Assembly (NCBI GenBank): GCA_963692775.1
Contig: OY839116.1
Span: 1,542,544-1,606,543, forward strand
Reading direction: 5' to 3'
DNA length: 64,000 bases
Source of the DNA: Dehalococcoidia bacterium
GTDB lineage: Bacteria > Chloroflexota > Dehalococcoidia > UBA2979
Below the pieces are notes generated by a model. It made no database searches. It saw only the letters and a list, made by a program, of their open reading frames with translations, and had not been told where the DNA came from. The number at the start of each line of letters is the position of its first letter. The first letter of the stretch is position 1. Below are positions 36,315-41,870 of the stretch, piece by piece. The translations under genes were made by a program, and so were the position numbers.

Positions 36315-36887
36315 CTACTCCGCTTCGGCGGCGAGGGCCGCGGCGAGCTGGCGCAGCGTGCGGTGGTGCAGCGCCTTCACGGCGCCCTCGCTGCGGCCGA
36401 GGATGCGGCCGATCTCGGCGTTGGTCAGGCCGTCGACGTACTTGAGCGTGATCAGGCGCTGGCGGTCGGGCGCGAGCGCCGCCGCAGCGTCGCGCACGCG
36501 CTGCGTCTCCTCCCGCGCCTCGAGCGTGGACTCCGGTCCCGGCGCGTCGGAGGGCACGGCGAGCGCCTCGTCGAGCGGCGCGGATTGCGGCCTGCGTCCG
36601 CGATCGCGGTACCAGTTGGCCAGCAGGTTGTGGGCGATGGACATCAGCCAGGACTCGAACTTGCCGCGCCCGCGGTAGCTGCCGAGGCTGGCGAAGGCGT
36701 TGGTGAAGGTGCGCGAGGTCAGTTCCTCGGCGTCGCTCACGCTGCTGGTGCGGGACAGCAGGTAGCGGTAGACGCGGCCGGCGTGCGCCTCGTACAGCTC
36801 GGAGAAGGCGTCGCGCGCTTCGTCCGCGCGGGCGGGATCGCCGGCCTGCGCCGGGGCGGCGGTGTGGCGGTCCGAATCGCGGTCCAT
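36315..36887 (-). CDS. ECF-type RNA polymerase sigma factor
   Basis: Region 2 (FSELYEAHAGRVYRYLLSR) and region 4 HTH (YVDGLTNAEIGRILGRSEGAVKALHHRTLRQL). Confidence 0.75.
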   Translation of the reverse strand: MDRDSDRHTAAPAQAGDPARADEARDAFSELYEAHAGRVYRYLLSRTSSVSDAEELTSRTFTNAFASLGSYRGRGKFESWLMSIAHNLLANWYRDRGRRPQSAPLDEALAVPSDAPGPESTLEAREETQRVRDAAAALAPDRQRLITLKYVDGLTNAEIGRILGRSEGAVKALHHRTLRQLAAALAAEAE

Positions 36888-36984: not shown

Positions 36985-37011
36985 TTAGCACTCTCCCCAT
37001 GAGAGTGCTAA
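36985..37011 (+). promoter_or_regulatory. CIRCE operator TTAGCACTC-n9-GAGTGCTAA (HrcA binding site)
   Basis: Perfect match to the CIRCE consensus; sits between the promoter and hrcA. Confidence 0.9.
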
Positions 37012-37040: not shown

Positions 37041-38054
37041 GTGCTCACTCAGCGCCGGGCGGACATCCTCAATCTCGTCGTAGACGAGTATATCGGCACG
37101 GCTGCGCCGGTGAGTTCGCGCGCGCTGGTCGACCGCCACAACCTCGACGTCTCCACCGCCACCGTGCGCAACGAGCTGGCCGCGCTCGAGCAGGAGGGGT
37201 ACATCACGCACCCCTACACCTCGGCCGGCCGCGTCCCCTCCAACACGGGCTACCGCTTCTACGTCGAGCAGCTGATGGCCGAGGATCCGGTCGGCGCGGA
37301 CGAGCGGCGGACGATCGAGCACCAGTTCTACCAGGCGCCGCCGGGGCTGGATGAGTGGCTCGAGCTCGCCGCCTCGGTCCTCGCGGCGGCGGTCGGCAAC
37401 GTCGCCGTCGTCTCGCGTCCGCAGCGGCCGGTGCCGCACCTGCGGCAGGCGCAGCTGGTGCACCTGCGGCCCGGCGCCGCGCTGCTGGTGGCGGTGCTGG
37501 ACGACGGCAGCGTGCAGGAGCGGATCGTCGCGGCGCCGGAGAGCGAGGACCAGGCGGAGCTGCTCACCCGCGCCGCGCGCCTCAACGATCGGCTCTCGCT
37601 CTCCGACGCGGAGCGGATCCGCACCGTGGCGCCGCAGTTCGAGGACGACGACGACCGCCGGCTCGCGCTCGAGATCGCCGACCTGGTGGCGGAGGGGGCG
37701 AATGCGGCGCAACTCTTCATCGAAGGCATCCGCAAGGCGCTGGAGCAGCCGGAGTTCTCCACCACCGATCGCATGCTGGACGCAGTCGAACACCTCGAGG
37801 CCTACGAGCTCCGCGGCGCGCTGCGGCCGCCGCGGAGCCCGGACCCCGGCGCGCGCGTGCTGATCGGCGACGAGAACGAGCGGGGCTGGCTGCACGACTG
37901 GACGATGGTCATCTCGGCGTTCGGAGAGCCCGGCGGGGCCGTCGGCTCGGTCGCGGTGCTGGGCCCGACGCGGATGCATTACGGGCACACGATCCCGCGC
38001 GTCCGCTACTTCGCCCGGCTGATGACCGAGCTGCTGCACGAGCTCGATGGCTGA
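37041..38054 (+). CDS. hrcA: heat-inducible transcription repressor HrcA
   Basis: N-terminus LTQRRADILNLVVDEYIGTAAPVSSRAL winged helix plus HrcA C-terminal domain; the track ATG at 36999 is inside CIRCE, so start moved to in-frame GTG 37041 after GGAGG. Confidence 0.85.
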   Translation: MLTQRRADILNLVVDEYIGTAAPVSSRALVDRHNLDVSTATVRNELAALEQEGYITHPYTSAGRVPSNTGYRFYVEQLMAEDPVGADERRTIEHQFYQAPPGLDEWLELAASVLAAAVGNVAVVSRPQRPVPHLRQAQLVHLRPGAALLVAVLDDGSVQERIVAAPESEDQAELLTRAARLNDRLSLSDAERIRTVAPQFEDDDDRRLALEIADLVAEGANAAQLFIEGIRKALEQPEFSTTDRMLDAVEHLEAYELRGALRPPRSPDPGARVLIGDENERGWLHDWTMVISAFGEPGGAVGSVAVLGPTRMHYGHTIPRVRYFARLMTELLHELDG

Positions 38055-38655
38055 GGCGTCGCCCGCCGGCCGCACACACAACCCGATGACGAACCACCAG
38101 GAGCAAGACGACGTGCCTCTTGAAGGAGACAGCGCCGGGGAACCAACCGCCCCCGCCGGAGAGCCCGGCGGCGCGGACGAGGCCCCCGGCGACGCCGAGC
38201 GCATCGCCGCCCTCGAGGCGGAGGTGGCGGAGTTGACGGAGCGGCACGCCCGCGCGGTCGCCGATCTGCAGAACTACCGCCGCCGCGCCGAGGAGCGCTG
38301 GACGGAGCGGGCGCGGGCGCAGCTGGCGACGACGATGGCGCGCTGCCTGCCGCCGCTCGACGATCTGAACCGCGCCCTCGACTCGGTCGACGGAAACCTC
38401 GCGGGCGACCAGTGGGTCGAGGGGATCCGGCTGGTGCAGCGCAAGTTCCAGGAGATGCTGGCGGGCGCCGGCGTCGAGGAGATCGGCGGCGAGGGCGAGG
38501 CCTTCGATCCGCTGGTGCACGAGGCCGTCTCGTCCGCGCCGGGTCCGGACGGGCAGATCCTCGCGCTGGTGCGCGAGGGCTACCGCATCGAGAACTACGT
38601 GCTGCGACCGGCCCAGGTGGTGGTCGGGGGCGGCGAGGAGACGGAAGAACAGTAG
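38047..38655 (+). CDS. grpE: nucleotide exchange factor GrpE
   Basis: Coiled-coil DLQNYRRRAEE and GrpE C-terminal beta domain; 8-bp overlap with hrcA. Confidence 0.9.
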   Translation: MAEASPAGRTHNPMTNHQEQDDVPLEGDSAGEPTAPAGEPGGADEAPGDAERIAALEAEVAELTERHARAVADLQNYRRRAEERWTERARAQLATTMARCLPPLDDLNRALDSVDGNLAGDQWVEGIRLVQRKFQEMLAGAGVEEIGGEGEAFDPLVHEAVSSAPGPDGQILALVREGYRIENYVLRPAQVVVGGGEETEEQ

Positions 38656-38728: not shown

Positions 38729-40633
38729 ATGGCAAGAGTAGTCGGCATCGACCTCGGCACGACGAACAGCGCGATGGCGGTGATGGAGGGCGGCGAGCCC
38801 GTGATCATCGCCAACGCCGAGGGCGGCCGCACGACGCCCTCGATGGTCGCGGTCAGCGGCTCGGGCGAACGGCTCGTCGGGACCGTGGCGAAGCGCCAGG
38901 CGGTGACGAACCCGGACGGCACGATCTTCTCGGTCAAGCGGCTGATGGGCCGCCGCTTCGAGGACGCCGAGGTCACGCAGCTGCGGGAAGTCGCGCCCTT
39001 CGGCCTCAACGCGGCGAGCAATGGCGACGCACACGTGACGATGGGCGATCGCGACTACTCGCCGCCCGAGATCTCGGCGATGATCCTGCAGAAGCTGAAG
39101 GCGGACGCCGAGGCCTACCTCGGCGAGGAGGTCACCGAGGCGGTGATCACCGTGCCCGCCTACTTCAACGACTCGCAGCGCCAGGCCACGCGCGACGCCG
39201 GCCGCATCGCCGGCCTCGAGGTGTTGCGCATCATCAACGAGCCCACCGCCGCCTCGCTCGCCTACGGCCTCGACAAGAAGGGCGACGAGGTGATCGCGGT
39301 CTACGACCTCGGCGGCGGCACGTTCGACATCTCGATCCTCGAGATCGGCGACGGCACCTTCCAGGTGCAGGCCACGAACGGCGACACCTTCCTCGGCGGC
39401 GACGACTTCGACAACGCGGTGATCGACTTCCTGGTGGCGGAGTTCAAGCGCGACCAGGGCATCGACCTGGCCAGCGACCGGATGGCGCTGCAGCGCCTCA
39501 AGGAGGCCGCCGAGCGGGCCAAGATCGAGCTTTCGACCGCGCAGCAGAGCGAGGTCAACCTGCCGTTCATCACCGCGGACCAGAGCGGCCCGCGGCACAT
39601 GCAGATCACGATCACGCGCGCTCGCCTCGAGCAGCTCGTCGACGGCCTCGTCGAGCGCACGATCGGGCCGGTGCGGGACGCGCTCAAGGACGCGGGGATG
39701 CAGCCCTCGGACGTCGACGAGGTGGTGCTGGTCGGCGGGATGACGCGCATGCCGCTGGTGCAGGAGAAGGTGCGCGAGTTCTTCGGCAAGGATCCGCACC
39801 AGGGCGTCAACCCGGACGAGGTCGTCGCGATCGGCGCGGCGATCCAGGCGGGCGTGCTGCGCGGCGACGTCAAGGACGTGCTGCTGCTCGACGTGACGCC
39901 GCTGACGCTTGGCATCGAGACGCTGGGCGGGGTGCTGACCTCGCTGATCGAGCGCAACACGACGATCCCGACGAGCGCGCAGCAGACCTTCTCGACCGCG
40001 GCCGACAACCAGCCGTCCGTGGAGATCCACGTGCTGCAGGGCGAGCGGCCGATGGCGGCCGACAACAAGTCGCTGGCGCGCTTCATCCTCGACGGCATCC
40101 TGCCCGCCCCGCGCGGCGTCCCGCAGATCGAGGTCGAGTTCAACATCGACGCGAACGGGATCGTGACGGTCTCGGCGCGCGACAAGGCGACGGGCAAGGA
40201 GCAGCACGTCACGATCCAGGCGAGCTCCGGCCTCACCGACGACGAGGTCGAGCGCCTCACGCGCGAGGCCGAGGAGCACGCGGCCGAGGACGCGGCGCGG
40301 CGCGAGGCGGTGGAGCTGCGCAACGCGGCCGACAACCTCGCCTACTCGGCGGAGCGCACGCTCAGCGAGCACGCGGACAAGATCGACGACGAGATGAAGG
40401 GCCGCGTCGAGGCGGCCATCGCCGAGGTGCGCTCCGCCCTCGCCGACACGGACGCCGACGCCGCGGCGTTGCAGCCGAAGGTGGAGGCGCTCTCGCAGGC
40501 GATGCAGGAGATCGGCGAGGCGGTCTACACCGCCACGGCTGCCGAGGCCGAGGCTGGCGGCGACGGAGCGGCCGGCGAGGCGGACGACGAGGAGGCGGCG
40601 AGCACCGTCGAGGGCGAGTTCCGCGAGGTCTAG
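38729..40633 (+). CDS. dnaK: molecular chaperone DnaK (Hsp70)
   Basis: [31 protein letters not shown] Hsp70 signatures. Confidence 0.95.
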
Positions 40634-40641
40634 CCTCGCGG
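40621..40641 (+). terminator. hairpin CCGCGAGG-tctag-CCTCGCGG spanning the dnaK stop codon
   Basis: Perfect 8-bp inverted repeat with the TAG stop in the loop; no U-tract. Confidence 0.4.
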
Positions 40642-40650
40642 GTCCGGCTC

Positions 40651-40775
40651 GCGCGAAAGTGTGCGGCACATTTCTGGATGGGTGCAGCGCGCACTTTCAC
40701 CGTGGCGGGTGGAAGTGCGCGGTTTATTTTTTGGGGGCTGTAGCGTACACTTTCTGGGTGAAAGTGTACGGTTCG
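40651..40775 (+). repeat. three dyad-symmetric elements sharing the core GAAAGTGT / ACACTTTC in the AT-rich dnaK-fic spacer
   Basis: R1 40655-40674 GAAAGTGTGC-GGCACATTTC; R2 40688-40721 CGCGCACTTTC-n12-GGAAGTGCGCG; R3 40744-40770 CGTACACTTTC-tgggt-GAAAGTGTACG (perfect 11-bp arms); a T-run tttatttttt between R2 and R3. Confidence 0.7.
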
Positions 40776-40779
40776 ATTT

Positions 40780-41817
40780 ATGAGGCGTGAACCTGATCAA
40801 CTTGGGGAGGGCCGGGCGGTGCGGCGCGGCCGGCCGCCTCGCGCTGCCGTCTACGCCCGGCTCGATACGCAGATCAACGAACTGTGGACGCGCATGGGGG
40901 GACTCCCCAACCGCCTGGAGGCGTCCGACATCTGGCGCGGCATCTGGTTCGAGGAGGCGCACCACTCCACCGCGATCGAGGGCAATACGCTCGTCCTGAA
41001 GCAGGTCGAGGCCTTGCTCGCGGAAGGGCGCGCCGTCGGCGACAAGCAGCTTGCGGAGTACATGGAGGTCCGCGGCTACGCGAACGCCGCCGACTGGGTC
41101 TACGGCCAGGCGATCGAGCCTGGCGATTGGTCCGGGGGCGAGTGGCTATCGCTGACCGAGGTCAGGCGCATCCATGAGGTTGCGATGGAGCCGGTCTGGG
41201 ATGTCGCGCCCCATCCGGTCGCCGAGTCGGCAGAGAGTCCGGGGGCGTACCGGCGACACGACATCCAGCCGTTCCCGGAGGGCATGACGCCTCCCGCGTG
41301 GACCGATGTGTCGGCGTTGATGGCTGACTGGATCGCCGACGTGAACCGCCTCGAGCCCGACGCCGAGCAGTTTCCGGAGGCCGTCGCCGCGCTGCACTGC
41401 CGGTTCGAGCAGATTCATCCCTTCCTCGATGGCAACGGCAGGACGGGTCGCCTGGTCCTCAACCTGCTGCTCGTCCGGCTCGGCTATCCGCCGGCGATTA
41501 TCTACAAGAACCAGCGCGGCACGTATCTGGCCGCGCTGCGGAAGGCCGACCGGGGAGACATCGGTCCGCTCGGCGAACTGCTCGCGCGGGCGATTCTCGA
41601 CAACCTCTACAAGTTCGTCATCCCGGCGGTGGCGGGCCCCGGCCGGCTTGTGCCGCTCGCTGCGCTGGCAAGTGAGCGGATCTCGCACTCGGCGCTGCGG
41701 ACGGCCGCGATCCGCGGGCGACTGCAGGCGACGCGCGGCGCCGACGGGCAGTGGCGCAGCACCATCAACTGGGTCGAGGACTACCTCGCGACTCGCTATG
41801 TGCGGGGCGCGCTGTAA
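40780..41817 (+). CDS. fic: Fic family protein, class II (FICD/HYPE-like) AMP-transferase
   Basis: Fic motif HPFLDGNGRTGR and upstream inhibitory-helix motif STAIEGN ((S/T)xxxE(G/N)); alternative start GTG 40819 after a GGGGAGGG RBS. Confidence 0.85.
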   Translation: MRREPDQLGEGRAVRRGRPPRAAVYARLDTQINELWTRMGGLPNRLEASDIWRGIWFEEAHHSTAIEGNTLVLKQVEALLAEGRAVGDKQLAEYMEVRGYANAADWVYGQAIEPGDWSGGEWLSLTEVRRIHEVAMEPVWDVAPHPVAESAESPGAYRRHDIQPFPEGMTPPAWTDVSALMADWIADVNRLEPDAEQFPEAVAALHCRFEQIHPFLDGNGRTGRLVLNLLLVRLGYPPAIIYKNQRGTYLAALRKADRGDIGPLGELLARAILDNLYKFVIPAVAGPGRLVPLAALASERISHSALRTAAIRGRLQATRGADGQWRSTINWVEDYLATRYVRGAL

Positions 41818-41870
41818 TCATGGCCGCCGGGCACGCGCATGCGGCGACTCTTCGGTAGACTGAGAGGTTG

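Follow-up and report, generated by a model that had tools for sequence, protein, structure and literature searches.

A fic-linked array of 44-bp inverted-repeat units in a dnaK operon of Dehalococcoidia, with Fic itself as the candidate reader

The window analysed here, a stretch of 64,000 nucleotides (64 kb) from the genome of a Dehalococcoidia bacterium (contig OY839116.1, positions 1,542,544 to 1,606,543), contains a heat-shock operon in which a gene for a Fic protein, fic, lies next to dnaK, and the spacer between these two genes carries a tandem array of a conserved 44-bp unit. Each unit is composed of arm1, (A)AAGTGYRCG, a 22-nt spacer opening with the box GGTNCANTT, which repeats the arm1 core in direct orientation, and arm2, CGYRCACTTT. 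Comparison of related loci indicates that the element belongs to fic and not to dnaK. The explanation that accounts best for these features, and to which we would give about an even chance, is that the array consists of autoregulatory operators that a Fic dimer would bind via predicted winged-helix domains at its C-termini. The original prediction made for this spacer had listed operator sites for a dedicated regulator of fic among its options, next to a structured RNA and an internal promoter or processing region of the dnaK operon; the operator option fits the evidence best, with the amendment that the regulator would most likely be Fic itself.

An operator of this general type is known from CccR, a Fic protein of Yersinia (for details, see below). 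What is new here is the different Fic lineage, the different predicted fold, the tandem arrays with a direct-repeat box, the spread over two phyla and the co-option by a heat-shock operon. The literature yielded no description of the 44-bp element, of a DNA-binding domain in this Fic family, or of a bacterial Fic-DnaK pairing.

Anatomy of the array

All three copies of GAAAGTGT in the window fall inside a 113-bp part of the spacer; the number expected by chance is 0.19, and none out of 100 shuffles reached three. When two mismatches to the 11-mer half-site are tolerated, no excess over chance is seen in the window (51 found vs 62 expected); the only copies with zero or one mismatch that form a cluster are the five in the spacer. 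The sequence features of the spacer are real and not due to chance. They resolve into two complete units and a third one with a decayed arm2, together with two dyads formed where consecutive units meet:

40655..40698, + strand: unit 1, with arm1 GAAAGTGTGCG at 40655-65, box GCACATTT at 40666-73 and arm2 CGCGCACTTTC at 40688-98
40711..40754, + strand: unit 2, with arm1 GGAAGTGCGCG at 40711-21, the T-run GTTTATTTTTT at 40722-32 replacing the box, and arm2 CGTACACTTTC at 40744-54
40760..40803, + strand: unit 3, promoter-proximal and partly decayed, with arm1 GAAAGTGTACG at 40760-70, box GTTCGATTT at 40771-79 and CTGATCAACTT in the arm2 position at 40793-40803
40688..40732, + strand: R2 junction hairpin, unit 1 arm2 / unit 2 arm1, stem 40688-40701 / 40708-40721, loop GTGGCG, followed by GTTTATTTTTT
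40744..40770, + strand: R3 junction dyad, unit 2 arm2 / unit 3 arm1, a perfect 11-bp stem with a 5-nt loop

The 11-nt arms of unit 1, which was found by nhmmer and forms a row of the unit alignment described below (A3), are 91% complementary and lie 22 nt apart. The spacer of unit 2 also measures 22 nt, its arms pair imperfectly (one mismatch plus G:T pairs), and the corresponding RNA hairpin, at -10.4 kcal/mol (z = -0.04), equals shuffled sequence in stability, that of unit 1 reaching -21.5 kcal/mol. Unit 3, again with a 22-nt spacer, is directly followed on its 3' side by the fic ribosome-binding site, and its nhmmer match covers arm1 and the box only; the sequence in its arm2 position, GATCAACTT, is kept in the clade that shares the dnaK-fic arrangement and resembles an actinobacterial arm2, CGTACAACTT, which likewise adjoins the ribosome-binding site. 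Every arm thus laid out has two possible partners, one within its unit and one across a junction. The junction partners form R2, with 14 pairs (nine of them G-C), a 6-nt loop and a T tail (GTTTATTTTT) at -27.8 kcal/mol (z = -5.7), and R3, at -17 kcal/mol (z = -3.7) and with a weak T-rich tail.

This register departs from the original prediction, in which R1, R2 and R3 had been taken for three independent palindromes. The half-sites listed there, R2, R3, the T-run (40723-32), the hairpin over the dnaK stop codon and a GGTTC-n14-GAACC dyad (40770-93) are all present where they had been placed, but the palindromes were mis-phased: the conserved register is arm-N22-arm (40655-40698 and 40711-40754), and R2 and R3 are unit junctions. 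R3 is indeed a perfect dyad of 11 bp with a 5-nt gap; R2 likewise exists, its actual stem being 14 bp with a 6-nt loop rather than a dyad with a 12-nt gap. R1, by contrast, is no clean dyad, as it requires a 1-nt indel; it corresponds to arm1 plus box of unit 1 and is palindromic only in the closest relatives (loci L001, L009 and L016), not in L002, L003 or L010.

Conservation of the units and their linkage to fic

A scan with the Fic protein, at one genome per species, gave 80 loci, 75 of which are non-redundant and were used for profile counts; a sequence-only profile built from 27 clean units was then iterated with nhmmer. It detects 115 units upstream of fic in 67 of the 75 loci. The gene order dnaK-fic-dnaJ is found only in one Dehalococcoidia clade (L001-L016, L019, L020 and L031), and the approximately 60 remaining fic orthologues (58-74% identity; Chloroflexota and Actinomycetota) lie away from dnaK, in unrelated contexts, with similar units just 5' of the gene. 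Hosts of these stand-alone fic genes include Tepidiformaceae and other Chloroflexota, Acidimicrobiia, Thermoleophilia, Solirubrobacterales and a Pseudonocardia, and their one or two units stand right before the ribosome-binding site or the start codon. Among the orthologous dnaK-fic spacers, those of L005 and L008 contain AAAGTCTACG-N22-CGTAGACTTT twice, and those of L010-L013 three to five copies of AAAGTGTACG-N22-CGTACACTTT; in all six, the 22-nt spacer opens with a box such as GGTTCAATT, GGTGCATTT or GCTTCAATT. The arms are lineage-specific and yet complementary, as in GTGTTCG/CGAACAC, TTGTACG/CGTACAA, TTGTTCG/CGAACAA, TCGTACG/CGTACGA and GTGTGTCG/CGACACAC.

Along 1.35 Mb of sequence (the loci plus the window, both strands), the profile matches only 5' of fic or directly past the fic stop codon. 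Since all of these loci had been retrieved via fic, an independent motif-first scan of metagenome contigs, guided by the DNA pattern alone, was added. It returned 22 stretches, with fic adjacent in 18, the neighbourhood cut off by a contig end in two, and no fic in two (L090 and L092). Fic is the only gene regularly accompanying the units, and it is adjacent in 18 of the 20 informative stretches. None of the gene families neighbouring stand-alone fic is common to more than five loci, and neither a recombinase nor a conserved partner gene is found among them. A further telling case is L031 (9700-11000), where DnaK and DnaJ are 96% and 90% identical to those of the window, the identity of Fic drops to 72%, and the arms belong to a different type (GTCTTC; AAAGTCTTC); here, the module of units plus fic appears to have been swapped between conserved flanks. 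This swap, taken with the linkage data, argues that units and fic move as one module, and the best explanation of the array in the window is that it entered the hrcA-grpE-dnaK-dnaJ operon together with fic as a single self-contained module.

Several loci depart from the simple arrangement. An extra unit lies directly past the fic stop codon in L008:7070-7115, L015:11032-11071, L019:10999-11038, L020:11002-11041, L029:5627-5666, L035:11023-11062 and L064:11024-11063. In L008, L015, L019 and L020, which belong to the dnaK clade, this places the unit between fic and dnaJ, and in L019, where the box reads TACAAT, it may be a Fic-controlled dnaJ promoter; in the stand-alone loci L029, L035 and L064 it faces a convergent gene. 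The profile search found no unit in the fic-dnaJ spacer of the window (41818-41867). The two orphan units that have no fic within reach (L090:2080-2120 and L092:11285-11324, both on metagenome contigs) are each situated between two convergent genes, in L092 between an adenylylsulfate kinase-like open reading frame (ORF), its function read from the translation, and a convergent ORF; they may have stayed behind when fic was lost, or may have another function. Because the unit is flipped relative to fic in L105:1659-1698 and L110:7954-7993, with the box beside arm2 and a separate TAGAGT on the 3' side, it works, or at least persists, in either orientation.

A DNA site or an RNA helix?

Is the unit read as DNA by a protein, or does it act as a folded transcript? 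Its geometry is strikingly constant: in 94 full units, the internal spacer measures 22 nt in 79, 21 nt in 11 and 23 nt in four, the linkers between units ranging from -1 to 29 nt across loci. An alignment of 76 gapless 44-nt units (A3), in which the 11 arm pairs were compared with column shuffles, shows 84.8% arm complementarity vs 71.6% in shuffles and 104 double-change cells vs 40.7, with none of 500 shuffles reaching either value, and sliding the register by one to three columns lowers pairing to 26-50%. Columns 7 and 38 always pair, as G-C in 65 units and as C-G in the other 11, and every one of the 76 units has TT at columns 18-19.

Complementarity by itself leaves the choice between DNA and RNA undecided, but a number of observations speak for DNA recognised by a protein. 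If selection acted on an RNA helix, the transcribed strand should show a clear wobble excess. Among the arm mismatches (60 in total and partly non-independent, which takes some weight from the test), 16 are G:T, 11 are A:C and 33 are of other kinds, i.e. there is no excess of wobble over A:C and most of the mismatches are transversions, and it is on account of this absent G:U excess that the arms are better understood as a DNA palindrome than as an RNA helix. (A loose inverted-repeat scan of upstream regions had collected chance matches in G+C-rich coding DNA, with 221 G:T and 225 A:C, and was replaced by the nhmmer profile.) In addition, arm1 column 7 and box column 12 switch jointly and share their base (G,G in 65 units; C,C in 10), in concert with the complementary arm2 column 38. 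Because of this joint change, the box is regarded as repeating the half-site core a third time, in direct orientation (GTACG-GTACA, CTACG-CTTCA), a relation that is not explicable by base-pairing, even if the co-change may represent only one or two evolutionary events.

The position of the units with respect to likely promoters points in the same direction, as does the flipped orientation of the unit in L105 and L110. The promoter-proximal box conforms to TANNNT (TACAAT, TACAGT, TACGAT and other variants) in 32 of the 51 units of stand-alone fic vs two of the 22 upstream units. In Acidimicrobiia, a conserved in-frame ATG or GTG follows 10 nt past the box hexamer; the likely ATG falls inside the spacer and arm2 lies within codons 2-4, a layout from which it follows that the arms would straddle the start site, with arm1 outside the mRNA. 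Upstream of the promoter-proximal units, no TTGACA-like -35 signal was found, the stretch consisting mostly of CGCGCAAC, the arm2 remnant of the preceding unit. Acidimicrobiia (L021, L023, L024, L026, L028, L032 and others) also share a conserved stretch about 60-110 nt 5' of fic, composed of a short palindrome, (A)ATCACACCGGTGTRA, followed by GTGGTTCGGTTCGGTTCG (a tandem GTTCG) and then CGCGCAAC, which resembles a degraded second unit with an additional site beside it.

How, then, would an RNA-level mechanism have to operate? Mutually exclusive unit and junction hairpins (R2, R3) would terminate or attenuate transcription, or would govern the processing or stability of the transcript, and would thereby set the ratio of dnaK to fic-dnaJ. 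The plus strand of the spacer indeed folds well below shuffled sequence (-87.8 kcal/mol, z = -5.6), R2 has the form of a textbook terminator and R3 that of a strong hairpin, both far more stable as RNA than the unit hairpins, every arm can choose between two partners, and several units occupy gaps between convergent genes, where terminators are expected, with an A-run before and a T-run after the stem. However, apart from the mismatch spectrum and the column 7/12 co-variation, the conserved pairing is the one that encloses a fixed 22-nt loop, whereas the loops of the more stable junction hairpins vary freely in length and loci with a single unit cannot form them; the T-run is confined to the closest relatives of the window; and in many Actinomycetota a likely -10 box and start site between the arms would leave arm1 untranscribed. 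Rfam gave no match at gathering score in the 64 kb and, at permissive E-values, nothing but noise in the spacer (E of at least 0.3; microRNA and lncRNA models), so neither Rfam nor the mismatches lend support to the structured RNA that had been suggested originally. An RNA thermometer was rejected, as the fic ribosome-binding site, GGGGAGGG, is not sequestered, being unpaired with the repeat arms in the predicted fold (z = -1.9). On balance, we consider it unlikely that control at the RNA level is the primary function, though in the window itself it keeps some plausibility.

R2 deserves separate treatment, since it looks like an intrinsic terminator placed after dnaK in one lineage. With its G+C-rich 14-bp stem, 6-nt loop and T-run directly 3' of a highly expressed gene, it conforms to the usual description (a G+C-rich stem of at least 5 bp, a loop of 3-8 nt and a T-run), which R3 fits weakly and the 44-bp units do not fit, given their 22-nt loop. 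Its stem, by contrast with an ordinary terminator, is built from two repeat arms, and the family-wide unit has a 22-nt 'loop' and no T-run; both the stem extension and the T-run occur only in the window, L001, L009 and L016. In these four, the junction of units 1 and 2 would have gained a longer stem and the unit 2 box would have become a T-run, giving rise to a candidate terminator that would reduce read-through from dnaK into fic and dnaJ. The idea of a terminator or processing site internal to the dnaK operon can therefore be kept for R2, as a lineage-specific add-on, but not for the remaining repeats.

Fic as the candidate reader of the arms

The protein encoded next to the array, and the parts of it that matter here, are placed as follows:

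40819..41817, + strand: fic, encoding a class II FICD-like Fic enzyme with a Pfam Fic match
40804-11 and 40819-21, + strand: likely fic ribosome-binding site GGGGAGGG and start codon GTG
41647..41796, + strand: region coding for the Fic C-terminal domain, about residues 277-326, modelled by AlphaFold as helix, helix, beta-hairpin, helix

The inhibitory motif TAIEGN assigns the protein to class II of the Fic family, its best solved relative is human FICD (E = 1e-23 by sequence; Foldseek E = 2e-10), and more than 5,800 Fic relatives are found at an E of 1e-20 or better. The C-terminal 64 residues have no sequence match in Pfam or the PDB. When the isolated C-terminal domain was submitted to Foldseek, the matches were to SoxR-DNA, BldC-DNA, RacA, NmlR, GlnR/TnrA, CarH and Pukovnik Xis, with the RdfS excisionase also among them, at probabilities of 0.9-0.99, root-mean-square deviations (rmsd) of 2.0-3.1 Å and weak E-values of 0.08-0.4, such E-values being usual for so small a domain. 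The C-terminal ~50 residues are thus predicted to form a winged helix-turn-helix (HTH) of the MerR/BldC/Xis type, a candidate reader of the arms. Full-length Foldseek alignments that extend beyond the Fic core are restricted to Fic proteins with a C-terminal HTH (4rgl, 7xux, 7cb8 and 3eqx). Comparison of the arm class with the putative recognition-helix and wing residues reveals a pattern of its own for each major class, which tracks phylogeny and has exceptions (e.g. L058).

A precedent is offered by CccR of Yersinia pseudotuberculosis (PDB 7XUX), a Fic protein with a C-terminal HTH whose dimer represses its own promoter via AGATAATCAT-N26-ATGATAATCT (PMC9755527), as established by DNase I footprinting, EMSA, ITC, palindrome mutants and lacZ fusions (PMC9755527). 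In both cases the operator, or putative operator, lies in the upstream region of the gene itself and consists of a pair of 10-bp inverted repeats with an uncommonly wide gap between them (26 bp in CccR, 22 bp here), and both proteins carry an N-terminal inhibitory (S/T)xxxE(G/N) helix. Of the hallmarks of a CccR-type operator, inverted repeats of ~10 bp, a spacer exceeding two helical turns and a position upstream of fic are present, and a C-terminal HTH in the protein is predicted. The CccR operator is read by a dimer with far-apart DNA-binding helices (about 70 Å; PMC9755527), and binding by a Fic dimer is proposed here by analogy. There are clear differences too: the operator sequences are unrelated (AGATAATCAT in CccR vs AAAGTGTACG here), and the proteins are distant, with E = 7e-12 across the Fic domain and about 18% identity according to Foldseek. 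In addition, the C-terminal domain of the present Fic resembles those of MerR, BldC and Xis, the units number one to five in tandem and contain an internal direct-repeat box, and Fic here is not a type VI secretion system (T6SS) effector. Sequence comparison therefore makes the Fic system described here an analogue or distant relative of CccR, not an orthologue.

A second useful comparison is with BldC of Streptomyces, which binds direct-repeat arrays as head-to-tail multimers (entry titles of PDB 6AMA and 6AMK). BldC is among the best structural matches of the Fic C-terminal domain, arm1 and the box form a direct repeat of a 5-nt core, and the number of sites differs between loci here as well; on the other hand, BldC is a free-standing protein of 68 aa, and the units are dominated by an inverted and widely spaced pair. 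Inverted repeats in dnaK operons also bring to mind CIRCE/HrcA and HAIR/HspR. As had been stated originally, however, the dyads are neither: the CIRCE copy of the window lies upstream of hrcA and the spacer arms share no CIRCE consensus, and HAIR (CTTGAGT-N7-ACTCAAG) has no match in the 64-kb window at up to three mismatches. A LexA box and the mycobacterial RecA-NDp promoter were ruled out by spacing and orientation.

If the assignment is right, a Fic dimer would bind each unit through its two C-terminal winged-helix domains, which would lie on the same face of the DNA with some three helical turns between their centres (about 32-33 bp), and would repress transcription that reaches fic from upstream or begins there. 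Where fic stands alone, the unit nearest the promoter would cover the -10 region and the start site, whereby Fic would limit its own synthesis, and extra units would act as cooperative or auxiliary sites. What would be the significance of such an arrangement? Autoregulation of Fic-HTH proteins via inverted repeats two to three helical turns apart would then be general, and not a peculiarity of the Yersinia CccR, and a ready DNA motif would be at hand for a large, highly conserved and uncharacterised Fic family.

A number of points weigh against this explanation. The link between Fic and the arms is drawn from co-occurrence, a predicted fold (Foldseek E 0.08-0.4) and analogy with a distant relative, CccR, which matches over the Fic domain only (E = 7e-12) and has an unrelated operator. 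The correlation between arm type and winged-helix residues is loose and confounded by phylogeny, the residues ALRNAA, for instance, occurring with both GTCTACG and GTGTGCG arms. In the window itself, arm2 of unit 3 is decayed and unit 2 pairs poorly, and units are also found 3' of fic and, in two cases, apart from any fic, where they occupy gaps between convergent genes, which a pure promoter-operator model does not predict. Finally, the promoter-proximal box of the dnaK clade lacks the -11 A throughout (0/16 units), and a simple promoter scan detected no sigma-70-like promoter in the window spacer. In view of these last two points, the array of the window could instead block read-through from the CIRCE promoter, or it could control a promoter of another type that such a scan does not see.

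It is also conceivable that not Fic but some other transcription factor of the host, encoded elsewhere in each genome, uses the units as operators and in this way controls fic. A palindromic design with fixed spacing and promoter overlap would suit any dimeric DNA-binding protein, and the fold assigned to the Fic C-terminus is a prediction only. Such a factor would, however, need to travel or co-evolve with the module, which moves among unrelated contexts in two phyla without a conserved partner gene, and the arm sequence follows the fic allele even where the host flanks are 96% identical (L031). We therefore hold a separate host factor to be distinctly unlikely and return to autoregulation by Fic as the preferred explanation.

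Mobility of the module and the relation of Fic to Hsp70

Might the units serve the movement of fic and not its expression? They could be recombination or boundary sites of a small mobile fic cassette, with flanking direct copies that excise or swap fic and with an Xis-like domain in an architectural role. Units do occur on both sides of fic in seven loci and as orphan single copies between convergent genes, their number varies from one to five among close relatives, the whole module was apparently swapped in L031, and a phage Xis and the RdfS excisionase are among the structural matches. A tRNA neighbourhood is typical of integrated islands, and a tRNA gene (anticodons Gly, Pro, Asp, Ser, Lys, Leu, Arg and Gln) lies within about 700 bp of fic at 22 of the 60 stand-alone loci (L021, L022, L024, L029, L035, L036, L038, L041, L048, L049, L052, L054, L057, L058, L059, L063, L064, L071, L074, L076, L078 and L083). 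Nevertheless, no integrase, transposase or other conserved neighbour was found beside stand-alone fic, the unit closest to the promoter stands in a constant relation to the ribosome-binding site or start codon and contains a -10-like box, and in most loci units are confined to the upstream side. The arms also read unlike attC core sites; an attC-like site was rejected because the order of the AAC and GTT cores is reversed. A role as cassette boundaries is improbable in our view.

That a generic, dispersed REP- or MITE-like repeat landed in the spacer by chance can virtually be dismissed: short tandem palindromic units in intergenic DNA and two orphan copies elsewhere would be in keeping with it, but the dyads are not dispersed, with no further copy in the 64-kb window or, outside the fic flanks, in the 1.35 Mb of related loci, and their position and orientation relative to fic are conserved across phyla, including in orthologous dnaK-fic spacers, with compensatory changes. 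Neither outcome that the original prediction had named as refuting, random dispersal or lack of conservation in orthologous spacers, was thus seen in the sequence covered.

FICD/HYPE both AMPylates and de-AMPylates the Hsp70 protein BiP, and the FICD-like fic gene of the window lies between dnaK and dnaJ in a CIRCE-controlled operon. Beyond FICD being the closest solved relative and the fic gene adjoining an Hsp70 gene, the parallel has its limits: a DNA-binding domain is absent from FICD, the fic orthologues are for the most part unlinked to dnaK, and the likeness concerns the protein and not the repeats. DnaK has a Thr in DKATGKEQ, which by comparison with a BiP fragment is the loop holding Thr518 of BiP. 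These thoughts can be extended to a scenario, quite doubtful at present, in which a self-contained module of FICD-like AMPylase, MerR/Xis-like domain and operator array spreads through Chloroflexota and Actinomycetota, often beside tRNA genes; one Dehalococcoidia lineage would have domesticated it in the HrcA/CIRCE operon, where array and terminator would gate dnaJ and where modification of DnaK by the enzyme would form a bacterial parallel to the metazoan FICD-BiP circuit. The question of bacterial Hsp70 AMPylation raised by an FICD-like enzyme between dnaK and dnaJ is, in any case, a more provocative lead than the element.

The operon and its gene starts

The window has a G+C content of ~70%, and its closest relatives are metagenome-assembled genomes of Dehalococcoidia (Chloroflexota). 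The operon runs in the order hrcA, grpE, dnaK, fic, dnaJ, prmA and a gene for an RsmE-like methyltransferase, with the following features in addition to fic and the array:

about 37042-38054: hrcA, operon gene 1
38047-38655: grpE, operon gene 2
38729-40633, + strand: dnaK, stop codon TAG at 40631-33
40621..40641 (40621-28 / 40634-41), + strand: hairpin over the dnaK stop, 8 bp, CCGCGAGG / CCTCGCGG, with TAG in the loop
41868-42989: dnaJ, the operon gene after fic

The annotation of fic needs to be amended. Its longest ORF begins at ATG 40780 and encodes 345 aa, and an exact-protein look-up of that ORF found no match, which is why the start codon was re-examined and corrected. Fic homologues are 332-333 aa long and cover 95-96% of the ORF, their tblastn alignments begin at the residue encoded at 40819, and GGGGAGGG lies 8 nt 5' of GTG 40819. 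By these comparisons fic probably starts at GTG 40819 and not at ATG 40780, the 345-aa ORF being 13 codons too long, and the dnaK-fic spacer consequently measures 185 bp instead of the 146 bp given originally. The GGTTC/GAACC dyad, which had been thought to span the fic start codon, would then leave the start outside; it is kept only in the closest relatives. Annotation should thus record GTG 40819 as the probable fic start, R2 as a candidate terminator, and the dyads as something other than three independent palindromes. The G+C content of the spacer is 0.52-0.59, vs about 0.70 in the flanks.

At the head of the operon, a sigma-70-like promoter, TTGACC-18-TAGAAT (36947-76), lies immediately 5' of a perfect CIRCE, TTAGCACTC-tccccatga-GAGTGCTAA (N9), at 36985-37011, 5' of hrcA. 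Because the start of the listed hrcA ORF, ATG 36999, falls within CIRCE, the true hrcA start is probably further downstream. The hairpin over the dnaK stop (-20.1 kcal/mol, z = -2.75) is outside the repeat family; elsewhere in the dnaK clade its place is taken by another short G+C-rich hairpin. On an Acidimicrobiia contig (L042:71-4570), 16 tRNA genes, one with an odd 4-base anticodon call, are packed into 4.5 kb about 5.5 kb 5' of fic. Divergent from hrcA in the window is an ORF on the - strand (36315-36887), which, by synteny alone, is equated with the Sigma70_r2/r4 gene (ECF-type sigma factor) of L001-L008.

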